From the IMG/VR virus record IMGVR_UViG_3300038321_000417: a stretch of DNA of 20,000 nucleotides; one strand, written 5' to 3'. Under the pieces are notes generated by a model. That model made no database searches and was not told the origin of the DNA. It saw only the letters and a program-made list of their open reading frames with translations. The position numbers and the translations under genes are program-made. Below, piece by piece: positions 6,917-20,000 of the stretch. Positions within the stretch are counted from its first letter, which is position 1. Every line of letters starts with the position of its first letter. Origin of the DNA: an uncultured virus (IMG/VR IMGVR_UViG_3300038321_000417). Its lineage: Duplodnaviria; Heunggongvirae; Uroviricota; Caudoviricetes.

Positions 6917-7264
6917 TTAGCCTAACCTCTGTCCACAGTGCCTACAAAATTTATCGTCTTTTGCCACTCTACTGTCGCACCTTGTACAATAATAGTATTT
7001 TCTTCCATCATAGATTCTGTAACCTACAAGCCTAACGTCTGACAAGTTATTTCCCATTGTTACTAAAGGTTTCGATGGCGATATCCTAAACTGTCCCTGT
7101 TCCCAATCAAACCCTAATCCTGCATGTTCTACTCTACTTGAAGCTCTTGCACCTACTGATGCATCTGAAAGTGTAATAAGCACTTCAATGTCTTCTGCTT
7201 TTTGATAGTCTCTAAGCCTCGATATTGTCAAGTCTACTATGATTTTTAGCATACTTAGTTTCAT
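6917..7264 (-). CDS. Phage-type protein with C-terminal zinc ribbon
   Basis: CTRC...CRHCGQRL. Confidence 0.75.
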   Translation of the reverse strand: MKLSMLKIIVDLTISRLRDYQKAEDIEVLITLSDASVGARASSRVEHAGLGFDWEQGQFRISPSKPLVTMGNNLSDVRLVGYRIYDGRKYYYCTRCDSRVAKDDKFCRHCGQRLG

Positions 7265-7282
7265 GTTAATACCTTCTGCTCT

Positions 7283-7555
7283 CTACTCTTGTACACATTC
7301 CATTACTGGAAAACTACCGCTGACGTGTTTCGTTAACAACACCATTCTCCTGTTAGGCAGTACCTTGTACCATCCCTTACGAAATGAAGTATATTTTGAC
7401 ACTTCGCTTTCGTATTCATTTTTTAAGTACTCTGTAGCAACGCCTTTCCACTGTTCCATATCAATGTGTCCTCTGTAAAAGAAACCTATAACACCACAGT
7501 CCCCAAAATTTAAAGGTTCTATTTTGAAATAAATATCATCTGACACTAACAACAA
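7283..7555 (-). CDS. Hypothetical protein (~87-90 aa; GTG at 7546 may be the true start)
   Basis: Co-directional ORF with AAGGGG SD. Confidence 0.7.
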   Translation of the reverse strand: MLLVSDDIYFKIEPLNFGDCGVIGFFYRGHIDMEQWKGVATEYLKNEYESEVSKYTSFRKGWYKVLPNRRMVLLTKHVSGSFPVMECVQE

Positions 7556-7841
7556 CCCCTTGTCAATAAAATTATAAGGGAAAGGCGGCTTTTCCCCTTT
7601 AACAAGATGTGATACTTAGAAAGTACTCTCACTTCCCCTGTTTATATTTTATGCCGCCATTGTAAACATTATTTAAGTGTATTGTTGCCACTATCAAAGC
7701 TGTACAACACCCAGTACCAGTCCTTACCTGTATTTAACCGCTTATTCCGCTACAGCCTTTCCAATTTCAATTTAATCCCTTATAACTTTTGTCATAATTA
7801 GTTGACCGGTACAACTCCTTACAAGATTAAATTTAAACTTG

Positions 7842-8537
7842 TCAAGGTGTACCTATTAATGTAATTCCGAATTTATCTAACACCCACACAGCCTCTCTTA
7901 ATGACTTTATACCTAAGCCTTTGACTTCTCTTAGTTCGACATAAGTCAGGTTTGCTAAATCTCTAATAGTTTTGATTCTTACTCTGTTTAAAGTGTTAAA
8001 TAGTCTACCACTTAAATCTAAGTCACGAAGTGTTATGTTCAACACTTCTTCACTTACCATGTCAAGTGTTCCCTTACACTGCTGTTCAGGTCTCTTTAAA
8101 TTGTCGTAACGTTCCCGTAACACTCTGTTTGTGATTTTTAACTCGTCATATTTATGCTTTATTATCTCTAACTCGTGTACTGTTCGTCTATACTTATCTT
8201 TAAACTCCCGATAATCCTCTTCATTATACACACTCATGTATAAACTTTTGTTTCTCTGTAATTTTGTGAAAACACTTCTCACAAGATTATCGAATTTACG
8301 TACAGAACCGTCAACCAAGTTTAAACTACTTTCAACACTTTCACAGTAAATGTATCTTTGTGCAATAAGCTTCTTTTCGGTTTCATTCAATTGATCAACT
8401 TCTTTTAAAAATTGATATATGTCCACCGACATTATTTTAGCCCTTGATTCAGAATTTATTACATGTCCTATCAAATTGAATGGATACGTTCTAAGCAAAT
8501 TCTCACAGCTTAATGCCCTGTCTAGGTTGTTTTCCAT
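7842..8537 (-). CDS. Degenerate sigma70-region-4 + coiled coil + RNA polymerase alpha-CTD domain protein (paralogue 2)
   Basis: YPFNLI; LNETEKKLIAQRY; C-terminal LRDLDLSGRLFNTLNRVRIKTIRDL...ELREVKGLGIKSLRE. Start reassigned to ATG 8537, which has an AAAGGGGG SD. Confidence 0.85.
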   Translation of the reverse strand: MENNLDRALSCENLLRTYPFNLIGHVINSESRAKIMSVDIYQFLKEVDQLNETEKKLIAQRYIYCESVESSLNLVDGSVRKFDNLVRSVFTKLQRNKSLYMSVYNEEDYREFKDKYRRTVHELEIIKHKYDELKITNRVLRERYDNLKRPEQQCKGTLDMVSEEVLNITLRDLDLSGRLFNTLNRVRIKTIRDLANLTYVELREVKGLGIKSLREAVWVLDKFGITLIGTP

Positions 8538-8554
8538 GTTTACTGTCCCCCTTT

Positions 8555-9577
8555 TTAATCTTTTATTGTGAAGCCGTAAGATGCCAAACATTCAATTATT
8601 TCATCTGCTGTCTTAACTCCCAAATTACGTAACCTCAACAACCCACTTCGTGTCATTCCTACCACGTCAGAAACATATCTTTTATTTGCGTTTCTTAATA
8701 CCTTACACGCTTTGTTACTCAATCCTATCTCTGTAAGCTTCGTTAAAGCTGTATCCACCGTACTTACATTTATACTGTCCCTTTTCTTTTCATTCTGTGA
8801 ACACATCTTGACGTATTCGTTTGTTAAGTATGAATTTTTATCTTTTAGTTGATTGATTTCTCTTTTTTGGTTTAAACTTAACGCTACTACTTTTTTATAT
8901 CTATCTTCAAGTATTTCTAGGCTATTCTCTTCATTAAAATATTCCCAATGTCTTGCCCTTATTGCACGTAGCATTTCTTTCTCTCTTTGTTGTACAGTCG
9001 TTTTTGTTACCTTTAAATGTTTCCCACAAGATTCAAGTGTCAACTTACGAATATACCTAAGTTCTATAATTTTTTTGTATGTCTCTTTAAGCCCCTCAAC
9101 TACAGCTAAAAATTTCTTTAAGTTAAATTGCAATACTTCTGAGGCAGTACCGGCAACACGTGATCTAAGAATTAAATTGTAGGGATACCTATATAAATAG
9201 TTATATTTATTTGCCTCTTTTGGTTCAGTTCGAATTAACTTATCTATCACATCATATACACTACCTAACTGCTTATGTGATGTTCTCGATTGACCCATTC
9301 CCTCTCCAGCATTAACAAATGTCCATAAAAATAAATCCAAAGTGAATACCAGTTCAAAAAGTTTTGAAATAAAGATTTCTTCTACTTTTTTAGTAGTCCG
9401 GTTGTTCCAGTCAAAATATATATGTATTCCTTTCGTATCAACATGCCCTCTTACAATACTATTGTACCATAAATAAGTACGGGTTTCCATCCATCCCCGT
9501 GCTTTAAACCAATCTAAGTGATTCCTAATCTCTTTATTTTCGCAAATATGAAGCACATTGTCTACTATTGCAAACAA
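8555..9577 (-). CDS. N-terminal unknown domain + sigma70-region-4 HTH + coiled coil + RNA polymerase alpha-CTD domain protein (paralogue 1)
   Basis: YPYNLI; LKETYKKIIELRYIRKLTLESCGKHLKVTKTTVQQREKEMLRAIR (sigma4); LTEIGLSNKACKVLRNA...LLRLRNLGVKTADEI (alpha-CTD). Confidence 0.85.
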   Translation of the reverse strand: MFAIVDNVLHICENKEIRNHLDWFKARGWMETRTYLWYNSIVRGHVDTKGIHIYFDWNNRTTKKVEEIFISKLFELVFTLDLFLWTFVNAGEGMGQSRTSHKQLGSVYDVIDKLIRTEPKEANKYNYLYRYPYNLILRSRVAGTASEVLQFNLKKFLAVVEGLKETYKKIIELRYIRKLTLESCGKHLKVTKTTVQQREKEMLRAIRARHWEYFNEENSLEILEDRYKKVVALSLNQKREINQLKDKNSYLTNEYVKMCSQNEKKRDSINVSTVDTALTKLTEIGLSNKACKVLRNANKRYVSDVVGMTRSGLLRLRNLGVKTADEIIECLASYGFTIKD

Positions 9578-9700
9578 TGTTATTTAATTCTCCTTTAAAC
9601 TGTCTGTCACTTTAATACCCGCTTTCTTCTGTGGTTTTCTTTAGGTTCTCACTTGCAGCCGCTTTTTATCAACTCTATAGCTTTATTAGTGTGTGAAAAG

Positions 9701-9733
9701 AAAAAACTGTGTTAGGTACTAAACCAACACAGT
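9701..9733 (-). terminator. Rho-independent terminator
   Basis: Minus strand ACTGTGTTGG-8-nt loop-CTAACACAGT followed by TTTTTCTTTT. Confidence 0.8.
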
Positions 9734-9818
9734 GTAGCCTATCCCTCTATTAATGTAAGTTACTTTATCTACTAGTTTAAGCCATTGTTTTTGACCTTGA
9801 CTTTTGGGTTTGCCCGAC

Positions 9819-10106
9819 CTATAAAAATCGGTTTTCAAGATAGCCAAATACACTTAATAAATTCGGCATTACTCTCCATTTTCCATCTTGATCTTGCTGT
9901 GCTATCTGTATTCTATCTATCTCAGATTCAATGATAAACTTTAAACTATTAAGCTTTAATGCAGTTTTGTTTGGTGGATATGGAATCCAACCGTTTCTTA
10001 CTCTACCTTTGAACTCAGGTGTATTTAACCATAGCCTTGTGTCGCTAACACTTAAACACGTTACCTGTCCAGGATTCAATATCTTCCTACTATCTACCCC
10101 TGCTAT
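9819..10106 (-). CDS. Hypothetical protein or pseudogene (start ATA 10106 or TTG 10079)
   Basis: Protein-like ORF on the coding strand; AAAGGGG SD 7 nt before an in-frame ATA. Confidence 0.5.
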   Translation of the reverse strand: MAGVDSRKILNPGQVTCLSVSDTRLWLNTPEFKGRVRNGWIPYPPNKTALKLNSLKFIIESEIDRIQIAQQDQDGKWRVMPNLLSVFGYLENRFL

Positions 10107-10399
10107 GTAACTGCCCCTTTGAATTGCTCATTTTTTCAATGTCAAGATCAACAACAGATTCAACTTTTCAAACTAAAAGTTTTCTAAATCTTGAACAGTC
10201 ATTCCACCCAATCCGGGCGATTCCGATAAGTCATTGAAATGCGCCGCTTTGGGGGAAGTGTTTCCGTACCTATTAAAGTGATTCCTAATTTCTTACTTCA
10301 AAAAACACTTAACATGTCGCTAGAACCGATTACACCCCGTATTAAATTAAAAGGAAAGTCATTTAAAAGATACTGATAACTAAACTTTATTATCCTTAC

Positions 10400-11875
10400 C
10401 TATTCCGCATTTGTTTGTTGAGCTTTTAAACTTTCACTCGAATTTTTTATGTCTTGCATTAAATCATTTAATTCCTTGATCTTACAATTCTGTTCCTCAA
10501 TTGTAGCTGCCATTTCCTGTGTTGAAGCAGAATGCTGTTCAGAAATCCCTGCAATGCTCTCCGTGTCTTCATTTATTCTTGTAAATAATTTATTTATGTT
10601 ATCGATGACTTCTAGCTCTTGAACCACACATTCACCTAACTTGTCAAAAGAAACTTTCATCACATTGAACCTTTCTTTAGTTAGGTTAGAAATATCTCTA
10701 CCAACCTGTACCGCATTGTCTCCACGCTGTACTTTTTCATATACCACACGTGTCTTTTCAACTATTTTTTCTGTAATGGTATTTATCCCAAATACTAATT
10801 CAGCAGATTCGTCTGCTAGTTTTCTAACCTGCTCCGCAACAACAGCAAAACCTCTACCTGCGTCACCTGCATGTGCTGCTTCTATAGCTGCGTTTAGAGC
10901 TAATAGATTGGTTTCTTCCGATATCCTTTTGATGCCTTTTAATAGTTTGTTTATGTCTTCCGTATTTCTGTTTAACTCTTCCACAGTCAACAAAGACTCT
11001 CTAACCGCTTCATCTATTATCTCTATTTGTTTATTCAAATATTCCATCTGTTTTGCCGTATCCTTAACAACTTCTGCTTCCGCTTTCGAGGTCTCTGCCA
11101 TTGTTACCGTGAATTTATATGCGTCTGCTACCTTTTGACCTGCTACGTTCATTTTTTCACTTATAGAGTATATGCTCTCAGCTTCAGTGGCAACGCCTTG
11201 TGCTGTTTCTTCTACCGCTATAGATATATCTTTTCCTGCCACATCTAACATGTTTATGTTTTCTTTACACAGTCTAATCCTGCTGTCTAAATCCTCTGTG
11301 TTTACTTTAATTATTTCCACAGTTTGCTTTAATTTGTTAAACAACTCCCGCACTTCGTTTTCTTTCTTACTGGCGGTTAAAATCATTTCACTTCCCCATT
11401 TTGTTACAAAGTATGAAAGCAATGCTGCCATATCGACAACTGTAATTACATTAATAAAAGTCTGGAAATCCATCATGCGAAAAACAATATTCATTATAAT
11501 TAATACAATGTTAACCGCTCCTGTAACGCCAAAAAACTTAACTTTGTCTAAGTATAACGTAATAAACGATATTGAAATTATAAACGAAAATGAAGCCAAA
11601 TCCATGTCAGACTTATCCATCTGTAATGTAACGTAAAAAGCTGTGAATATTGTGCAAAATGAAAAAATGTAAGCAATATACTTTTCAAGTAAATTATTAA
11701 TTATTAAGTACTTTGCTATTCCTGCCATAACTGCAATAACTGATGCAGGTATGAAAAACATATACTGTCCTGTAACTACTGCCAATAACATAAGTAATCC
11801 TGAAATTACTAAAAATACTTTTATGCAAATAGCATTAACTTTTTGCATGTGAATGTCTAATACCGAATTGTTCAA
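10400..11875 (-). CDS. Methyl-accepting chemotaxis protein (multi-TM N-terminus, MCP signalling domain)
   Basis: About 5-6 TM helices, then [40 protein letters not shown], with methylation-helix motifs EETAQG and [10 protein letters not shown]. Confidence 0.97.
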
Positions 11876-11906
11876 TTTTTTACCCCCTTGTTCACTAACT
11901 TTAAGG

Positions 11907-12119
11907 TTAATACCCTCTTTGCATTTTGATGCTCGCCGCTTGCAAGTCTATAATTTCTCTAAGCTCTTTAACTATTAGATGCAACTCCTGTATTTCTTCC
12001 CTATGTGCATGTGCTATCATATCTTGAGTGTTTTGCAACTCTTTAATTTTTCCATTATGTGCCTGTACTATTATATTTTGAATGTTGTGCAATTCTCCTA
12101 TTAGTTCTTTATCAAGCAT
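11907..12119 (-). CDS. Small coiled-coil protein with 18-aa internal repeat
   Basis: [18 protein letters not shown] / [18 protein letters not shown] / IQELHL...; AAAGGAG SD. Confidence 0.75.
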
Positions 12120-12171
12120 ATTGATTCTCCTTTCAATTTATGTTTATTAAACATTTTTATTGTAACTCACA

Positions 12172-12834
12172 TTAACTTAGAGTATACTTACTTACGTTGA
12201 CATCTAAATAAATTTCATATTTCGATCCGTGCTGGTTAATAGACACCACTAAACCTGTCTTTTCACTATACTCATCTTCAAGCTTGTGTCCAAGTTCTGT
12301 CCAAAGATCGAATTTAGAGCAGTTATCTATCACAGTATAAGAATCATAATGTAATTCACAATAACTATGATCCTCATTCCAATTAAATTTAATGTTTGAT
12401 TTTACTGTAGCGTTTATTGCTGTTCCCAGGTCATTGGATGATTCTCTTTTATGCTTTACAGTAAAACCTTTGCCGTTAATTTTAAACCCTACCATACGGT
12501 TAAATATTTCTATTGCAAGGTCATGAATAAACTGTTCATCTTTGTCACAAAATAAGAAAGTCTTCACCTGTTTTATTTTTTCAGCATTATTTGAAATATC
12601 AGGTACAATACAATTATACTTCACTTCATCCGATGTAACATACATGTCTTCCCCGTTTAACTTAACTTTCTGTAATTCTTGTTTTTTAGCATACCTTAAA
12701 TTTTGTAAATTAGTTTGACCTAAAGCATCAAGTGATATGTCATAATGATAATAAGTATCTTTAGTACATTCCACTAACCTTAAAGCTATAGGTTTATCTC
12801 CAATAACTAATATGTTAACAGGTTTTATAAACAT
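12172..12834 (-). CDS. Hypothetical protein (220 aa)
   Basis: TAATG overlap with the upstream SLH gene; AAAGGGG SD. Confidence 0.8.
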   Translation of the reverse strand: MFIKPVNILVIGDKPIALRLVECTKDTYYHYDISLDALGQTNLQNLRYAKKQELQKVKLNGEDMYVTSDEVKYNCIVPDISNNAEKIKQVKTFLFCDKDEQFIHDLAIEIFNRMVGFKINGKGFTVKHKRESSNDLGTAINATVKSNIKFNWNEDHSYCELHYDSYTVIDNCSKFDLWTELGHKLEDEYSEKTGLVVSINQHGSKYEIYLDVNVSKYTLS

Positions 12835-13757
12835 TATAATTCCCCTTTCCGTTTGTCAGCAGGTAATCTATTTTCAATTCTAAACGCTCTTGCAAGTATC
12901 GCAACTGCTTCTGCACGTGTTAAAGGTTTGTTCCAACCAAATGATCCGTCAGGTAAACCACAAATTATTCCAGAATAGTTGTTCCAATTAATCGCTACTA
13001 CTGTATCACGCAACATATCTTTTTCACCAGACACAACTTTATCAAAGTTAGGATAATAATAAGGTAACGATAATCCTAATTCCTGTTCCTGTTCCTTGTG
13101 AAGTTCTGTGTTATGTTGGCTTTTATGGATAGGGATTGTCTTACTAGGTAAATCAACAAAATACCTCTTGTCAGCCATAGACAATATAATACCCTCTGTC
13201 GATTCTATTTCCGCTAAATACTTATATATTAATGTGGCAACTTCACCCCTATAAATAGGTTTATTCATATCCCTATCACTATACAAACCAAAAGGAATGT
13301 CATTAATGTGATAATAATATGAAATGTACCAACTGTCTGTTATTTTATTTTCCATTGTAGACCCTTGTAATATTTCTGTCATTTTAGCCTTTGAACCACT
13401 GTCCAATTTATTATCTATTCCTTTTAATCTCCCTAACATTGTCCAAAACTCTGCTCTTGTTGTCTCTCTTGATCCCGCAAAGATGTCGCCTTTTGATCCC
13501 GATCCATTTATGATACCCTTTGAAACCATTAATGCTAAATCTTTTTTATACCACTCTGTGCCGCTTATGTCACTAAATCTTTTAGGAAGTAATTCCATTA
13601 TTTTTTCTAATTCGCTGTCTGAATATTCTGTAGCAGGTTTAACCCTTTCACCGTCAACAATCTTGTCCACTTCCTTATAAAATTGTTCCTGTGTAAACCC
13701 CGATAATATCAGCACTAATGCCAATAACACTATAGCGTATATTGTCCCTCTATTCAT
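12834..13757 (-). CDS. Secreted S-layer homology (SLH) domain protein
   Basis: Signal peptide MNRGTIYAIVLLALVLILSG; FSDISGTEWY...SKGIING...TTRAEF; NKPIYRGEVA; GIICGLPDGSFGWNKPLTRAEAVAILAR. Start reassigned to ATG 13757 (AGGAG SD). Confidence 0.9.
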   Translation of the reverse strand: MNRGTIYAIVLLALVLILSGFTQEQFYKEVDKIVDGERVKPATEYSDSELEKIMELLPKRFSDISGTEWYKKDLALMVSKGIINGSGSKGDIFAGSRETTRAEFWTMLGRLKGIDNKLDSGSKAKMTEILQGSTMENKITDSWYISYYYHINDIPFGLYSDRDMNKPIYRGEVATLIYKYLAEIESTEGIILSMADKRYFVDLPSKTIPIHKSQHNTELHKEQEQELGLSLPYYYPNFDKVVSGEKDMLRDTVVAINWNNYSGIICGLPDGSFGWNKPLTRAEAVAILARAFRIENRLPADKRKGEL

Positions 13758-13780
13758 TTTTAACAACACTCCTATTCTGT

Positions 13781-14023
13781 TTATTCTGCAACCTCTACAA
13801 CGCTGCAAACAAGCCACTTATTAGTATCTATACCCAATTCCTTTGCTCGTTGTCTTCCCCTATCAACCGCATCTTCTCTTGAAGTTGCTCTTACTGTAAC
13901 AGATTTAAATTCCAATATTCTTTCCGGATTAAAACACCAGTTGTTCTCATTGTCAGTTAAGTATACGTAATAATCTCGATTACGTACGGGATTACTTAAT
14001 TTGTATATAGCTTGTTCTTCCAT
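13781..14023 (-). CDS. Hypothetical protein (~80 aa)
   Basis: Start reassigned to ATG 14023 after AGGGGG SD; contains V.V.A.S.EDA motif. Confidence 0.7.
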   Translation of the reverse strand: MEEQAIYKLSNPVRNRDYYVYLTDNENNWCFNPERILEFKSVTVRATSREDAVDRGRQRAKELGIDTNKWLVCSVVEVAE

Positions 14024-14046
14024 CAGTATACCCCCTGATTGTTTAA

Positions 14047-14307
14047 TTAAATTTGAACATATTCTGTCTTTAGCCATTTGCTACCGTCAGCGCAAGTCCA
14101 CTTTTCTATTATCTCTTTTGCTTTTTTAACTTTTAAAATATCCCTTGTTGTTATCGTAATACAGTTACGGTTTCCTCTTCTGCTATTCTTTCTTGCAGTA
14201 CAACCTGCACAGGTACAATCACCGTGAAATTCATAAAGCTTTTGGTCTGTTTTAGCATTCCCATTTTCATAACATACCCTAGATAGTGCCTCAATATACT
14301 TTGCCAT
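14047..14307 (-). CDS. Hypothetical Cys-rich protein (HxxCxCxxC)
   Basis: FHGDCTCAGC; AAAGGGG SD. Confidence 0.7.
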   Translation of the reverse strand: MAKYIEALSRVCYENGNAKTDQKLYEFHGDCTCAGCTARKNSRRGNRNCITITTRDILKVKKAKEIIEKWTCADGSKWLKTEYVQI

Positions 14308-14321
14308 GTGAAAACCCCTTT

Positions 14322-15089
14322 CTACTCTGCATCTTCTTTATCGTCAAGTTCAAATATTTCACGCATATTGTCAATAGCTTCTTTAACCGATAGTCTAAAA
14401 CTATTGAATACGTTTACCTTGTCTGCAAATTCTGTTTCAAGCTTTTCTTCCTGTGTTTGATACGTAATTACTTTGTTAGAATGTGCTAACTCCAATTCTT
14501 TTATTTTTTGTTCGTATTCTACTTGACACTCAACCGCTCTATTAGAGTACTTTAACTCTAATTCCTGCATTGCCTGATCGTGCTTTTCTCGGTTATTCGC
14601 AATAATAGCATCTTGTTCCGCTTTAAATCGATCAGACAAAGCTTTTTCGTCATTGGTCAACTTTTCTATTTCTTCTCTGATACCCTTTTCCTCTTGCTTT
14701 GCCTGATTTAGTAACTCTTGTCCGTCTAATGCCGCCTGTTCTAATAGCTCTTTTGACTTCTTTTCTGCATCAGTAATAAGGTCTTGAGCCACAAGCTTTG
14801 CATTATTTTCAAGTGCGTTAGCTTGCTCCTTTGCCTGATTAATTATACCCTCTGCTGTTTCATTAGCCTTTAATAAAGTGTCAGTAATCAAAATTTTTCT
14901 GTTTAAGAATTCATCCAGCTTTGATTTCAAATCACACACGTTGTTATTTGCAAGTTCCAAACTCTCTTTCAAAGTTTTTATTTCCGAATCTTTTTCTTCG
15001 ACGGTATGTTCAAACTCTTGTATGAGTCTTAAAATGAAGTCATCAACGTCTTTTTTCTTGTAGCTCTGTAGCATATTCTCCGGTTTCAC
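14322..15089 (-). CDS. DivIVA-domain-like coiled-coil protein
   Basis: N-terminal LQSYKKKDVDDFILRL (cf. FRGY..EVD.FL), TLLKANETAEGIINQAKEQA, long coiled coil. Confidence 0.75.
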   Translation of the reverse strand: MKPENMLQSYKKKDVDDFILRLIQEFEHTVEEKDSEIKTLKESLELANNNVCDLKSKLDEFLNRKILITDTLLKANETAEGIINQAKEQANALENNAKLVAQDLITDAEKKSKELLEQAALDGQELLNQAKQEEKGIREEIEKLTNDEKALSDRFKAEQDAIIANNREKHDQAMQELELKYSNRAVECQVEYEQKIKELELAHSNKVITYQTQEEKLETEFADKVNVFNSFRLSVKEAIDNMREIFELDDKEDAE

Positions 15090-16433: not shown

Positions 16434-17435
16434 TTACTCGTCACCAGAGTTCAATTCTGATTGTGCTTCGTCAATAGTGTACTTTAGTATGTAAGCTTTA
16501 GCCCTCTCCGATGTGGATGCTGCTTTTATTAACATGTCTGGATTTTCTTCTAACGCTCTTTTCCACTCCTGAATGTAAGCAACGCTATTATCTACAACAC
16601 TAGGTTGGTACGCATATATCCCTGTTTCTGCACATAACATTGACGCTCCAAAGTTCGCCACAAGTTCTTCAAATGAAAAAGCACCATAACTCCTGTCATT
16701 AGGTGTGACATTCCTTGTAACCCTACCTTTTTTACATGTAGAATGGATTAACTCATGAAATAAGGTAGAATAATAAGATTCAACACTGTTAAACTTATTT
16801 TCATCAGGCATATTAATTATGTCTAACTTGTCATTGTAATACGGATCTGTACTTCCGTGCTGTACTGTAATATCTTCCATTTCACAATAATTCCCTGCAA
16901 CGTCTTGAGGTAATCCTAAAGGTGAAAACTCTATGTCCCCTGATTCGAGCCTTGTTTTCACAGGATTCCCATCCTTGTCAATCATATACTTTACATTAAA
17001 TACAGTGTAATACCTTACTGTTCCGTATGTTTTAAAAAGTTGACCGTCAGGTTTTCTTTTTAACACCCTGTGATCTATAGCATATTTAATTAAGTCATTC
17101 CTACTTTGATTGCCTATTAATGATTTTACATAGTCAAGAATAGTTTCCATACCCGCTTGACTTACAGGGTAATCCTTATCAATTTTACGTATTATAATTT
17201 CAGATGGGGTGTTTTTTGGGATATTAAACTTAAATCCCAACGCCTGTTTAAATGTTAAATACTCTCCCTCAGGTATTAAAAACCTATTAATCCCTGTGTA
17301 CTCTTTACATGACTTCCAGTTAATTGCCACTGTGCTACTCCAAGGTCTTAACCAAGGTAGTCTTTGTTCTTCAACTGCCCTTGTCATTATTCTGTCAACT
17401 ACTATTTCGCCAACCGTTTTCTTTTCATTTCCCAT
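16434..17435 (-). CDS. ardC: ArdC-like antirestriction protein (ssDNA-binding N-domain + zincin-like metallopeptidase)
   Basis: LPWLRPW, Y.GINRFL, YLTFKQA, YYTVFN, YYSTLFHELIHST, EELVANFGASMLC, NSVAYIQEW, AAS.SE.A..YIL. Confidence 0.9.
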   Translation of the reverse strand: MGNEKKTVGEIVVDRIMTRAVEEQRLPWLRPWSSTVAINWKSCKEYTGINRFLIPEGEYLTFKQALGFKFNIPKNTPSEIIIRKIDKDYPVSQAGMETILDYVKSLIGNQSRNDLIKYAIDHRVLKRKPDGQLFKTYGTVRYYTVFNVKYMIDKDGNPVKTRLESGDIEFSPLGLPQDVAGNYCEMEDITVQHGSTDPYYNDKLDIINMPDENKFNSVESYYSTLFHELIHSTCKKGRVTRNVTPNDRSYGAFSFEELVANFGASMLCAETGIYAYQPSVVDNSVAYIQEWKRALEENPDMLIKAASTSERAKAYILKYTIDEAQSELNSGDE

Positions 17436-18749: not shown

Positions 18750-20000
18750 TCAGTCGAATTTAGTTATTTTCATAGGTAATAATACTTCCCCATTAACGTA
18801 ATAAGTAATTTCTTGTCTTAATTCTTCAATAAGGCTTTCGATCATAGTCTCGCTAAACGCTTGCTTTTTATACAAGAATTTAATAGAGTCAAATGCAGTA
18901 TAGTAAATCATTATATCTTTGTCAAATAACCCCGTTAATGAATTCCAACCATACCCCTTTTTCTTTAACGCATTACTTAAATCTTCTATCGCCAATGTAA
19001 GTACATCAGACGTACTTCCTTGTATTTTCCATGAAACTTTTACTTTCTTGTTATTAACATTTCTTGAATTGTCTACATCCCTTATTTCTGTACCGAACAA
19101 AGTATAAACTGACTTCAAGGTTTCATCTGATAATTCGTCCCACAGTGCTTTAACTGTAGCGTTTTCTGCAAATAAGTCGTATATCTTTTCACCAGCCACC
19201 CCTTTGCTTATTTGCTTTATCTTTGCTTTTGAAGCCCCGTATAATGAAGCGTTCCAACAAGCTTTTATTATGTCTCTCTGTTCCGTTGTTACTGTCTGCA
19301 TACCTAATACAGTTTTTGCAACACTGCTATAAAAGTCCGAATCATTGCAAAAGATGCCAAACTCTTTGATGTCAAACACATAAGCCGATATTCGAGGCTC
19401 TATCTGATTGTAGTCTAGTTCATATATACCATATCCATCAGGTGTAAATAAATTCTTATAGGTGTTTATATCGAAACCACTTACACAAGGGCTATTTGTG
19501 TAGGCTCTGTTTGTTATAGCATAAGTGTGTTCTGGATGAACGATACTGTTATTGTCTGCAAGCTCTATTAGTTTACTTAAAGATGAAACTGTCCTATTTG
19601 TAGACGAATACCGTACAATAACCTCGGCAACAGGATCATCCGCAAACCTATTAAATTCCTCTATAAGTTCAGATTTAAATGAATAGTCCATCTGTCTCTT
19701 TCTCGTGTTATACACGTAAAAGTATTTTTTCAACAATTCTTCTGAATAGTTTGAAGTAAAATAACTTTTAACTTGTAACGGTGAATTTGGATTGAGTCCT
19801 GCGTACCCGTAATTAGAAAGTAATTGCCTCATTTCGTCCAACATTCTATTGTTTATCCTAATATGCTCTTTAGCCACTTCCTGATTTACATAAATCCCTC
19901 GATGTGTTACATAGTCATAATACCCCTTTGCTATTTCAAAATCAGGTACATGGAAATAATCATTTTTACTGTTAAATTCCTCTGTGTAAATTGTCTGCAT
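18750..20000 (-). CDS. polA: Divergent family-A DNA polymerase (polymerase domain; 5' end may lie outside window)
   Basis: NPNSPLQV; motif A ELDYNQIEPR; motif B RDIIKACWNASLYG; KIQGSTSD; motif C YTAFDSI. Confidence 0.88.
   Translation of the reverse strand: MQTIYTEEFNSKNDYFHVPDFEIAKGYYDYVTHRGIYVNQEVAKEHIRINNRMLDEMRQLLSNYGYAGLNPNSPLQVKSYFTSNYSEELLKKYFYVYNTRKRQMDYSFKSELIEEFNRFADDPVAEVIVRYSSTNRTVSSLSKLIELADNNSIVHPEHTYAITNRAYTNSPCVSGFDINTYKNLFTPDGYGIYELDYNQIEPRISAYVFDIKEFGIFCNDSDFYSSVAKTVLGMQTVTTEQRDIIKACWNASLYGASKAKIKQISKGVAGEKIYDLFAENATVKALWDELSDETLKSVYTLFGTEIRDVDNSRNVNNKKVKVSWKIQGSTSDVLTLAIEDLSNALKKKGYGWNSLTGLFDKDIMIYYTAFDSIKFLYKKQAFSETMIESLIEELRQEITYYVNGEVLLPMKITKFD

Follow-up and report, generated by a model that had tools for sequence, protein, structure and literature searches.

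The locus analysed here raises the question of why a mobile element should carry two adjacent genes whose products each join a domain resembling region 4 of a sigma factor (sigma4) to a domain resembling the C-terminal domain of the RNA polymerase alpha subunit (alpha-CTD), and of what such proteins may do for the element. The two genes, named A and B in this work, are neighbouring open reading frames (ORFs) on the minus strand at positions 7842..9577 of a 20,000-nt stretch (hereafter the window) of IMGVR_UViG_3300038321_000417, a record catalogued as an uncultured virus, for which an ORF listing with translations served as the starting point. Judged from sequence comparison, A and B represent a lineage-specific tandem duplication of a widespread, mainly phage-borne family, and both copies have strongly diverged.

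Domain architecture of the A and B proteins

In the form that is open in the window, gene A occupies positions 8555..9577, starts with a TTG codon at 9577, terminates with TAA (8555-8557) and specifies a protein of 340 amino acids. Gene B was listed by the ORF program as 7842..8591 (249 amino acids). Its real start is most likely the ATG at 8537, because a GGGGGA ribosome-binding site, read from the sequence at 8546..8551, is located 8 nt upstream of it and because the database orthologue P0007 is 231 residues long; gene B accordingly covers 7842..8537, ends with TGA (7842-7844) and encodes 231 amino acids. All features of the two genes given below are located on the minus strand.

The alpha-CTD identity of the C-terminal domain is unambiguous in both proteins. 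In A (residues ~271-338; 8564..8767), where the residue table places LSNKACKVL and RNLGVKT, the Pfam family RNA_pol_A_CTD matches residues 277-332 (E 1.8e-10; 40.9 bits, with a cut-off of 23.8), and the predicted fold superimposes on chain 1z3e_B with a Z score of 13.7 and a root-mean-square deviation (rmsd) of 0.7 over 67 residues. In B (residues ~162-228; 7854..8054), which contains LSGRLFNTL and KGLGIKS, the same family matches residues 181-235 (E 1.5e-12; 47.5 bits), phmmer retrieves Bacillus subtilis alpha-CTD chains at E 1e-9, and the predicted domain matches 1z3e_B with a template modelling (TM) score of 0.94, an rmsd of 0.6 and 43% identity, reaching a Z score of 14.3 in a second fold search.

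With regard to the central segment, the sigma4-like domain of A (residues ~145-216; 8930..9145) is matched by Pfam Sigma70_r4 over residues 161-207 (E 5.8e-8; 32.6 bits, with a cut-off of 24.1), its predicted model resembles sigma region 4 structures with Z scores of 8-9.5, and the PHROG families matched by A comprise sigma factors and transcriptional regulators, none of them named RinA. Pfam returned no match of B to any sigma family. When compared to a 30-member profile of the family described below, B aligned with all parts covered (hhalign probability 99.2, E 6.9e-20, 198 columns), and residues ~30-102 of its AlphaFold2 model (8232..8450; predicted local distance difference test score (pLDDT) of 88.5 for the protein) match region 4 of many sigma factors with Z scores of 6-7.2. 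On the basis of this profile comparison and of the predicted fold, the central segment of B is classified as a degenerate sigma4. The assignment of sigma4 to the central segment and of alpha-CTD to the C-terminus, which a first-pass annotation had made from the letters of the sequence alone, was therefore recovered by profile methods, sigma4 being identified in A by Pfam and in B by hhalign and fold, and the alpha-CTD in both.

A and B can be aligned to one another over 220 residues with 23% identity (BLASTP E 7e-14) and are paralogues. The shared layout that had been proposed for them, YP[YF]NLI followed by sigma4, a coiled coil and an alpha-CTD, is borne out by Pfam, BLASTP, hhalign and the fold matches, and each of the strings by which it had been recognised (YPYNLI/YPFNLI, LSNKACK, LSGRLFNTL and KGLGIKS) is indeed present. 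According to the columns of the family alignment, the N-terminal motif is YPYNL in A (residues 131-135; 9173..9187) and YPFNL in B (residues 18-22 of the 231-residue form; 8472..8486). The coiled coil corresponds to a predicted 43-residue, leucine-zipper-like helix between sigma4 and alpha-CTD in each protein, at residues 219-261 of A (8795..8923) and 106-148 of B (8094..8222), the latter with a 13-residue insertion relative to the family, and its a/d heptad pattern is found family-wide. The cores of both proteins were predicted by AlphaFold2 with high confidence.

As had also been noted, neither sigma region 2 nor the N-terminal domain of the alpha subunit (alpha-NTD) accompanies these modules. 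Sigma region 2 is absent from the Pfam and NCBIfam lists of A and B, in which only region 4 families appear, NCBIfam sigma models being matched over their last 50-60 positions only and far below their cut-offs; no alpha-NTD family occurs in the Pfam lists, and rpoA models are matched over their C-terminal 60-100 positions only (35-46 bits, with cut-offs of 228-523). There is therefore no evident route by which A or B could act as a polymerase subunit or as a sigma factor.

The first 125 residues of A (9203..9577) form an extension for which no relatives were detected beyond three near-identical proteins, and none among the shorter proteins searched; four proteins of approximately the length of A were found in total. 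The pLDDT of this extension is mostly below 60, so that a fold search with it would be meaningless. A complex prediction combining the A core (residues 126-340) with B reached a score of 0.12, the mark being 0.32, in a run in which control pairs were not folded; the score thus counts neither for nor against binding.

A large family of sigma4/alpha-CTD fusion proteins

A search of 1.84 billion representative proteins with a profile constructed from A, B and three relatives yielded 22,433 matches at E<=1e-3, of which 4,181 at E<=1e-10. Sigma factors, RpoA proteins and proteins with 3-12 alpha-CTD repeats account for many of these. Of the 150 matches listed, approximately 68 (by hand count) are proteins of 195-390 amino acids in which one uninterrupted match begins ahead of sigma4 and extends through the alpha-CTD. 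Both Pfam domains, Sigma70_r4 and RNA_pol_A_CTD, were detected in all 30 fusion proteins tested, and 11 of these 30 carry in addition an N-terminal XRE-type helix-turn-helix (HTH). No NCBIfam model spans the fusion, and the literature search, whose coverage did not extend to subscription journals, returned no paper that describes the family or that contains both Pfam names (PF04545 and PF03118); the work it retrieved concerns the host modules or other phage factors.

An alignment was made of 64 of the 150 listed matches together with P0006, A, B and two close homologues of A; the 64 are single-stretch matches of at most 310 amino acids, and the other 86 were excluded because they contain repeats, exceed this length, match in several stretches or belong to the window itself. 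The consensus starts with YPxNLa, followed in sigma4 by LTeREq.VL.lRY..gmTLE..Gk., and ends with a heptad helix and LeLSVRsYNCL.RAGi ... RNLGrKS. In the 65 family rows, the YPxNL motif is conserved at P (65/65), N (64/65) and L (58/65). The RpoD-type recognition helix (TRERIRQ) retains R in 45, E in 60, the two further R residues in 64 and 63, and Q in 58 of these rows, while the DNA-contact positions of the alpha-CTD retain R in 65, N in 61, G in 65, K in 55 and S in 55. In the linker, Leu occupies two d positions (51/65 and 54/65) and Asn an a position (29/65). A leucine zipper with such an a/d pattern is typical of parallel dimers. The layout of the family is an optional XRE-type HTH, YPxNL, an RpoD-like sigma region 4, a leucine-zipper-like helix and an alpha-CTD.

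A and B belong to this family by virtue of their alpha-CTD, of a sigma4 upstream of it, of YPxNL and of the heptad linker helix, in which both retain the conserved d-position Leu and the a-position Asn, and hmmsearch with the family profile retrieves them at E 3e-33 and E 8e-28, respectively. An RpoD-type recognition helix, a typical and not a defining trait of the family, is present in neither. The pair is thus not a one-off design; A and B instead correspond to a duplicated and strongly diverged member of a large single-gene family that is found mostly on phage contigs.

Arrays of alpha-CTD-like domains were also seen in other database proteins (P0008, P0010, P0011 and P0034), with 11 repeats in a protein of 1031 amino acids and four in a protein of 323 amino acids; the module seems to have spread well beyond RpoA. 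The same set of proteins includes one of 1003 amino acids that combines three Spo0A_C domains, one sigma4 and three alpha-CTDs.

Genomic location of the relatives

In the ESM Atlas, the clusters that contain both domains comprise 53-203 members each and carry a virus label. A tblastn search of IMG/VR identified 345 stretches encoding relatives, of which 80 loci were kept. A full-length family member was found by hmmsearch with the family profile in 16 of these 80, the other loci matching the sigma4 part only, and both Pfam domains were present in each of the ten full-length members tested. In the 12 IMG/VR loci that were annotated, the gene is situated among replication and recombination genes or at their end, being preceded by SSB and followed by RusA (L009), preceded by a helicase and a methylase and followed by HNH and a replisome organiser (L014), or preceded by a primase-helicase, a nuclease and a methylase (L016) or by a DNA polymerase (L012). 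In one of the 12 (L020), terminase and portal genes are located ~3-4 kb downstream of the family gene. In phages of Gram-positive bacteria, this is the position of the genes for late activators such as RinA (PMC3152322). Among isolated phage genomes, none of 50 records covers 80% of a typical family member. The family is large, mostly phage-borne, single-gene and functionally uncharacterised.

Features that set the tandem pair apart

A survey of tandem conservation, as had been suggested for this locus, showed that the pair is present in all four loci of the element lineage (the window, L001, L002 and L003), and that a single gene is present in all 16 phage loci within the flanks fetched. A candidate second copy in L062 was rejected, the upstream gene there being unrelated (hhalign probability 0.1). 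In a quick maximum-likelihood tree the A clade and B are sisters (SH-aLRT 84), which fits a local duplication. The branches leading to A and B are very long (2.33 and 3.44, with a median of 0.91), so that long-branch attraction is possible.

The two copies differ from the family, and from each other, in the residues expected to contact DNA. In the recognition helix, A reads TKTTVQQ, with K, T, T and Q in place of R, E, R and R and only the final Q kept, and B reads SVRKFDN, in which none of these residues is kept. At the five DNA-contact positions of the alpha-CTD, B retains all (R, N, G, K and S), whereas A retains two (R being replaced by K, N by K and S by T). The sigma4 segment has a net charge of +10 in A (residues 126-216) and of +1 in B (residues 1-103). 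The proposal of a reciprocal degeneration, by which each copy would have kept the domain that the other had lost, consequently holds for one half only: the alpha-CTD contrast was confirmed, but the sigma4 of A, though passing the Pfam threshold, has also lost the residues that read the -35 element.

The copies moreover evolve differently. The DNA sequence of B is 98.6-99.4% identical among the three full variants, and A is 94.2% identical to its counterpart in L001, from which it differs by non-synonymous changes in 38 codons and synonymous changes in 10. Twenty-nine of the 38 amino acid differences are located in residues 150-243 of the 351-residue form of A, which correspond to sigma4 and the start of the helix, and one block within these residues is only 70% identical. 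The pair would thus constitute a duplicated and apparently subfunctionalised variant of an architecture that is recognisable by its domains.

Integrity of gene A

In the relatives (P0004 and L001) gene A comprises 351 codons and starts 33 nt further upstream. The corresponding ancestral 5' end in the window (9578..9610) has a GTG start codon (9608-9610) and is interrupted at codon 9 of the 351-codon frame by TAA (9584-9586), where L001 and the contigs of two other runs have CAA. The run from which the window was probably derived also reads TAA, and the change is therefore private to this probable source sample. The database protein P0003 (351 amino acids) represents window gene A with the TAA read as Gln. 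Recoding of the stop codon was considered and ruled out, since TAA, TAG and TGA terminate 14, 8 and 5, respectively, of the 27 closed ORFs of the window and CAA is found at this codon elsewhere; with all three stop codons in normal use, the TAA is a nonsense change. Translation might restart at the TTG codon located three codons beyond it.

A different lesion, a 2-nt insertion, is found in gene A of L002 (9968-11016) and of run X3 (at the position equivalent to 9415 of the window), and divides the L002 gene into ORFs of 76 and 268 amino acids. The L002/run X3 variant also contains diverged replacement blocks at window positions 8887-8958 and 9227-9323, because of which gene A looks mosaic between variants. 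The core of the gene, from YPYNL to its end, is open in all four variants.

Possible functions of the pair

The reading that we favour, to which we assign somewhat less than an even chance, is that A and B are coiled-coil, dimeric DNA-binding transcription regulators of the element, between which labour was divided following duplication. It draws on the conserved DNA-contact residues of the family, on the extra HTH carried by a third of the relatives tested, on the zipper and on the position of the gene. The proteins would dimerise through a parallel coiled coil, and the dimer would bind DNA upstream of promoters, its alpha-CTD-like helix-hairpin-helix domain contacting the minor groove of A/T-rich DNA and its sigma4-type HTH contacting the major groove, so that both domains together might modulate the host RNA polymerase at what would be the promoters of the element itself. 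B, with an intact alpha-CTD contact set and a dead, uncharged sigma4, would be the conserved subunit and DNA anchor; A, whose sigma4 is strongly basic and would differ in specificity, and whose alpha-CTD is altered, would be the diversifying specificity subunit. A narrower and rather improbable form of this reading holds that A and B are an obligate parallel coiled-coil heterodimer, corresponding to a free-standing copy of the upstream-promoter-reading half of the polymerase, in which the B alpha-CTD would be the anchor and the A sigma4 the diversifying head, and which would mark or mask the promoters of the element. The heptad pattern, with its a-position Asn in both copies, fits homodimers and heterodimers equally.

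Several points weigh against the favoured reading. The -35-reading residues kept by the family are lost in both A and B, for which reason the DNA target cannot be guessed, and DNA binding by the sigma4 of B is doubtful. No repeated operator-like motif was found by a repeat search of 7200-10400, by a palindrome pattern or among 9-mers shared by 11 intergenic regions. The literature search produced no report of DNA binding, dimerisation or an effect on transcription for any family member. The near-start nonsense codon in the window and the 2-nt frameshift in the other variant could mean that gene A is decaying. Phage, IMG/VR and plasmid searches gave no match that would decide between a phage and a plasmid, and the ~21 kb read around the pair on contigs of ~156 kb contains no packaging genes.

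In an alternative reading, the proteins hijack or decoy the host RNA polymerase: the sigma4-like domain would replace host sigma region 4 on the beta-flap, or the modules would titrate host or rival factors that bind such modules, such that host transcription is redirected or blocked without sequence-specific DNA binding. Both copies have kept the fold and lost the -35-reading residues, as would be expected if selection acted on protein contacts and not on DNA reading. Sigma4 and alpha-CTD are the polymerase surfaces most used by regulators for protein contacts, the alpha-CTD of B closely resembles the B. subtilis domain crystallised with Spx, and phages target this very nexus: G1 gp67 binds sigma and keeps the alpha-CTD off upstream A/T-rich DNA (PMC3694059). 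We nevertheless consider this alternative unlikely, given that typical family members retain both DNA-contact sets (in 45-65 of the 65 rows), which argues for an ancestral job that involves DNA, that the sigma4 of A is strongly basic, and that 11 of 30 relatives add another DNA-binding HTH. The same conserved residues lend themselves to another proposal, namely that the protein, a free copy of the holoenzyme half that reads upstream DNA, sits on the UP-element/-35 region of strong host promoters in competition with RNA polymerase and so shuts off host transcription: in the family consensus the RpoD-type recognition helix is preserved, as are LSVRSYNCL and RNLGRKS in the alpha-CTD, and alpha-CTD and sigma region 4 are placed side by side on UP/-35 DNA in PDB 3N97. 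Such occlusion would suit typical members, but not the A/B pair, in which four of the recognition residues of A and all of those of B have been replaced, and for this pair it is very unlikely.

A further reading, in which at least one of the copies is a duplicate in decay that has little or no function left, is given only a slim chance, decay being possible for A and unlikely for B. It would account for the lesions near the start of gene A, for the excess of non-synonymous differences between A and L001, for the very long branches of both copies and for the degenerate sigma4 of B. On the other hand, B is intact, is highly conserved among the three full variants and has a strong ribosome-binding site, the core of A is open in four variants with a possible restart at TTG in the window, the cores of both proteins are predicted to fold with high confidence, and the differences in A are concentrated in one domain and not evenly spread.

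The element and its surroundings

All sizeable ORFs of the window are located on the minus strand, and its GC content is 31-37%. In the order of their positions, the window contains the start of a TnpB/OrfB-like gene (1-567), which runs off the window and is the partner in an IS607-type pair with a serine-recombinase transposase carrying a MerR-type HTH (564-1181); a SEC-C/CxxCxxCC protein gene (1594-2415); and, beyond the A/B pair, genes for a membrane protein with an MCP signalling domain (10400-11875), an SLH-domain protein (12834-13817), a DivIVA-like coiled-coil protein (14322-15089), an ArdC-like anti-restriction protein with a zincin (MPTase-PolyVal) domain (16434-17435) and a fragment of the family A DNA polymerase PolA (18750-20000). 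Genes of a cellular type (MCP, SLH and DivIVA-like; 10400-15089) thus form part of an array that resembles a mobile element and has its genes on a single strand.

The gene upstream of A encodes 312-335 amino acids in L001 (8753-9760) and L002 (8821-9759), without a Pfam family. Only its last 86 codons (9819-10079) are kept in the window, which implies that this variant has lost ~1 kb between gene A and the gene with the MCP domain. A terminator-like hairpin with a T-run, supported by a consensus scan only, is located between this truncated gene and gene A (9706..9733, minus strand). A 22-bp near-palindrome (ACAAG-N12-CTTGT; 7821..7842) abuts the stop codon of B; as a single match with 0.88 expected by chance in 20 kb, it is not significant. 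A promoter scan yielded 11 sites, with 12.3 expected from shuffled sequences, and Rfam and tRNA scans of the window returned nothing.

The relatives L001 and L002 are located on two contigs of ~156 kb. A search of the phage collection gave no DNA or protein match for A; B matches alpha-CTD-sized pieces only, in five records, and the PolA fragment is 23-24% identical to three unannotated phage-labelled records. In IMG/VR no match was obtained for the A1 profile or for PolA. Matches to plasmid DNA extend over 99-119 bp only, and none was found for the SLH protein. Short DNA matches were obtained to Clostridium and Acetoanaerobium records, and the alpha-CTD is closest to Bacillota. The stretch is present in 12 DNA-type runs, and no RNA run is listed as containing it.

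Comparison with known systems and significance

The closest system in architecture is the sigma4/alpha-CTD fusion family itself, with which A and B share the order YPxNL, sigma4, heptad helix and alpha-CTD, and from which they differ in forming a tandem pair, in their lost -35-reading residues and in their very long branches; A alone has in addition lost three of the five alpha-CTD contact residues and possesses the 125-residue orphan N-terminal extension. In the RNA polymerase holoenzyme, alpha-CTD and sigma4 on UP/-35 DNA (PDB 3N97; Spx complex, 1Z3E) have the same two folds (alpha-CTD, Z 13.7-14.3 and rmsd 0.7-0.8; sigma4, Z 6-9.5), but A and B hold both in one chain by way of a coiled coil, and are without alpha-NTD and sigma region 2. 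Late activators of the RinA/ArpU/LtrC type are likewise small sigma-like phage regulators, and the relatives of A and B are encoded where the replication module ends, one locus having terminase and portal downstream of the family gene. These late activators are not known to contain an alpha-CTD.

Small phage proteins are known to reprogram the host RNA polymerase, either by binding to sigma region 4 or by interference with the alpha-CTD. What the element carries instead are copies of both host modules, fused through a zipper. Phage G1 gp67 (Staphylococcus aureus) and T4 AsiA/MotA act at the same nexus of sigma4, alpha-CTD and upstream DNA (PMC3694059 for gp67; PMC2988021 is a review on T4); these proteins have unrelated folds and bind host sigma, whereas in A and B it is the host modules that have been copied.

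Provided that they bind DNA as compact UP/-35-type readers, the proteins could find use as small, modular components of synthetic promoters in Gram-positive hosts. The pair also amounts to a natural experiment, in which one copy is frozen and the other is diversifying in sigma4, and which could show which module carries specificity. Should A and B form the heterodimer outlined above, the single-gene family would do the same as homodimers, and would represent a new class of phage transcription factor derived from captured polymerase modules. The existence of a large family, with thousands of matches, that is mostly phage-borne and for which no descriptive paper was found, points to an unstudied route of transcription control.

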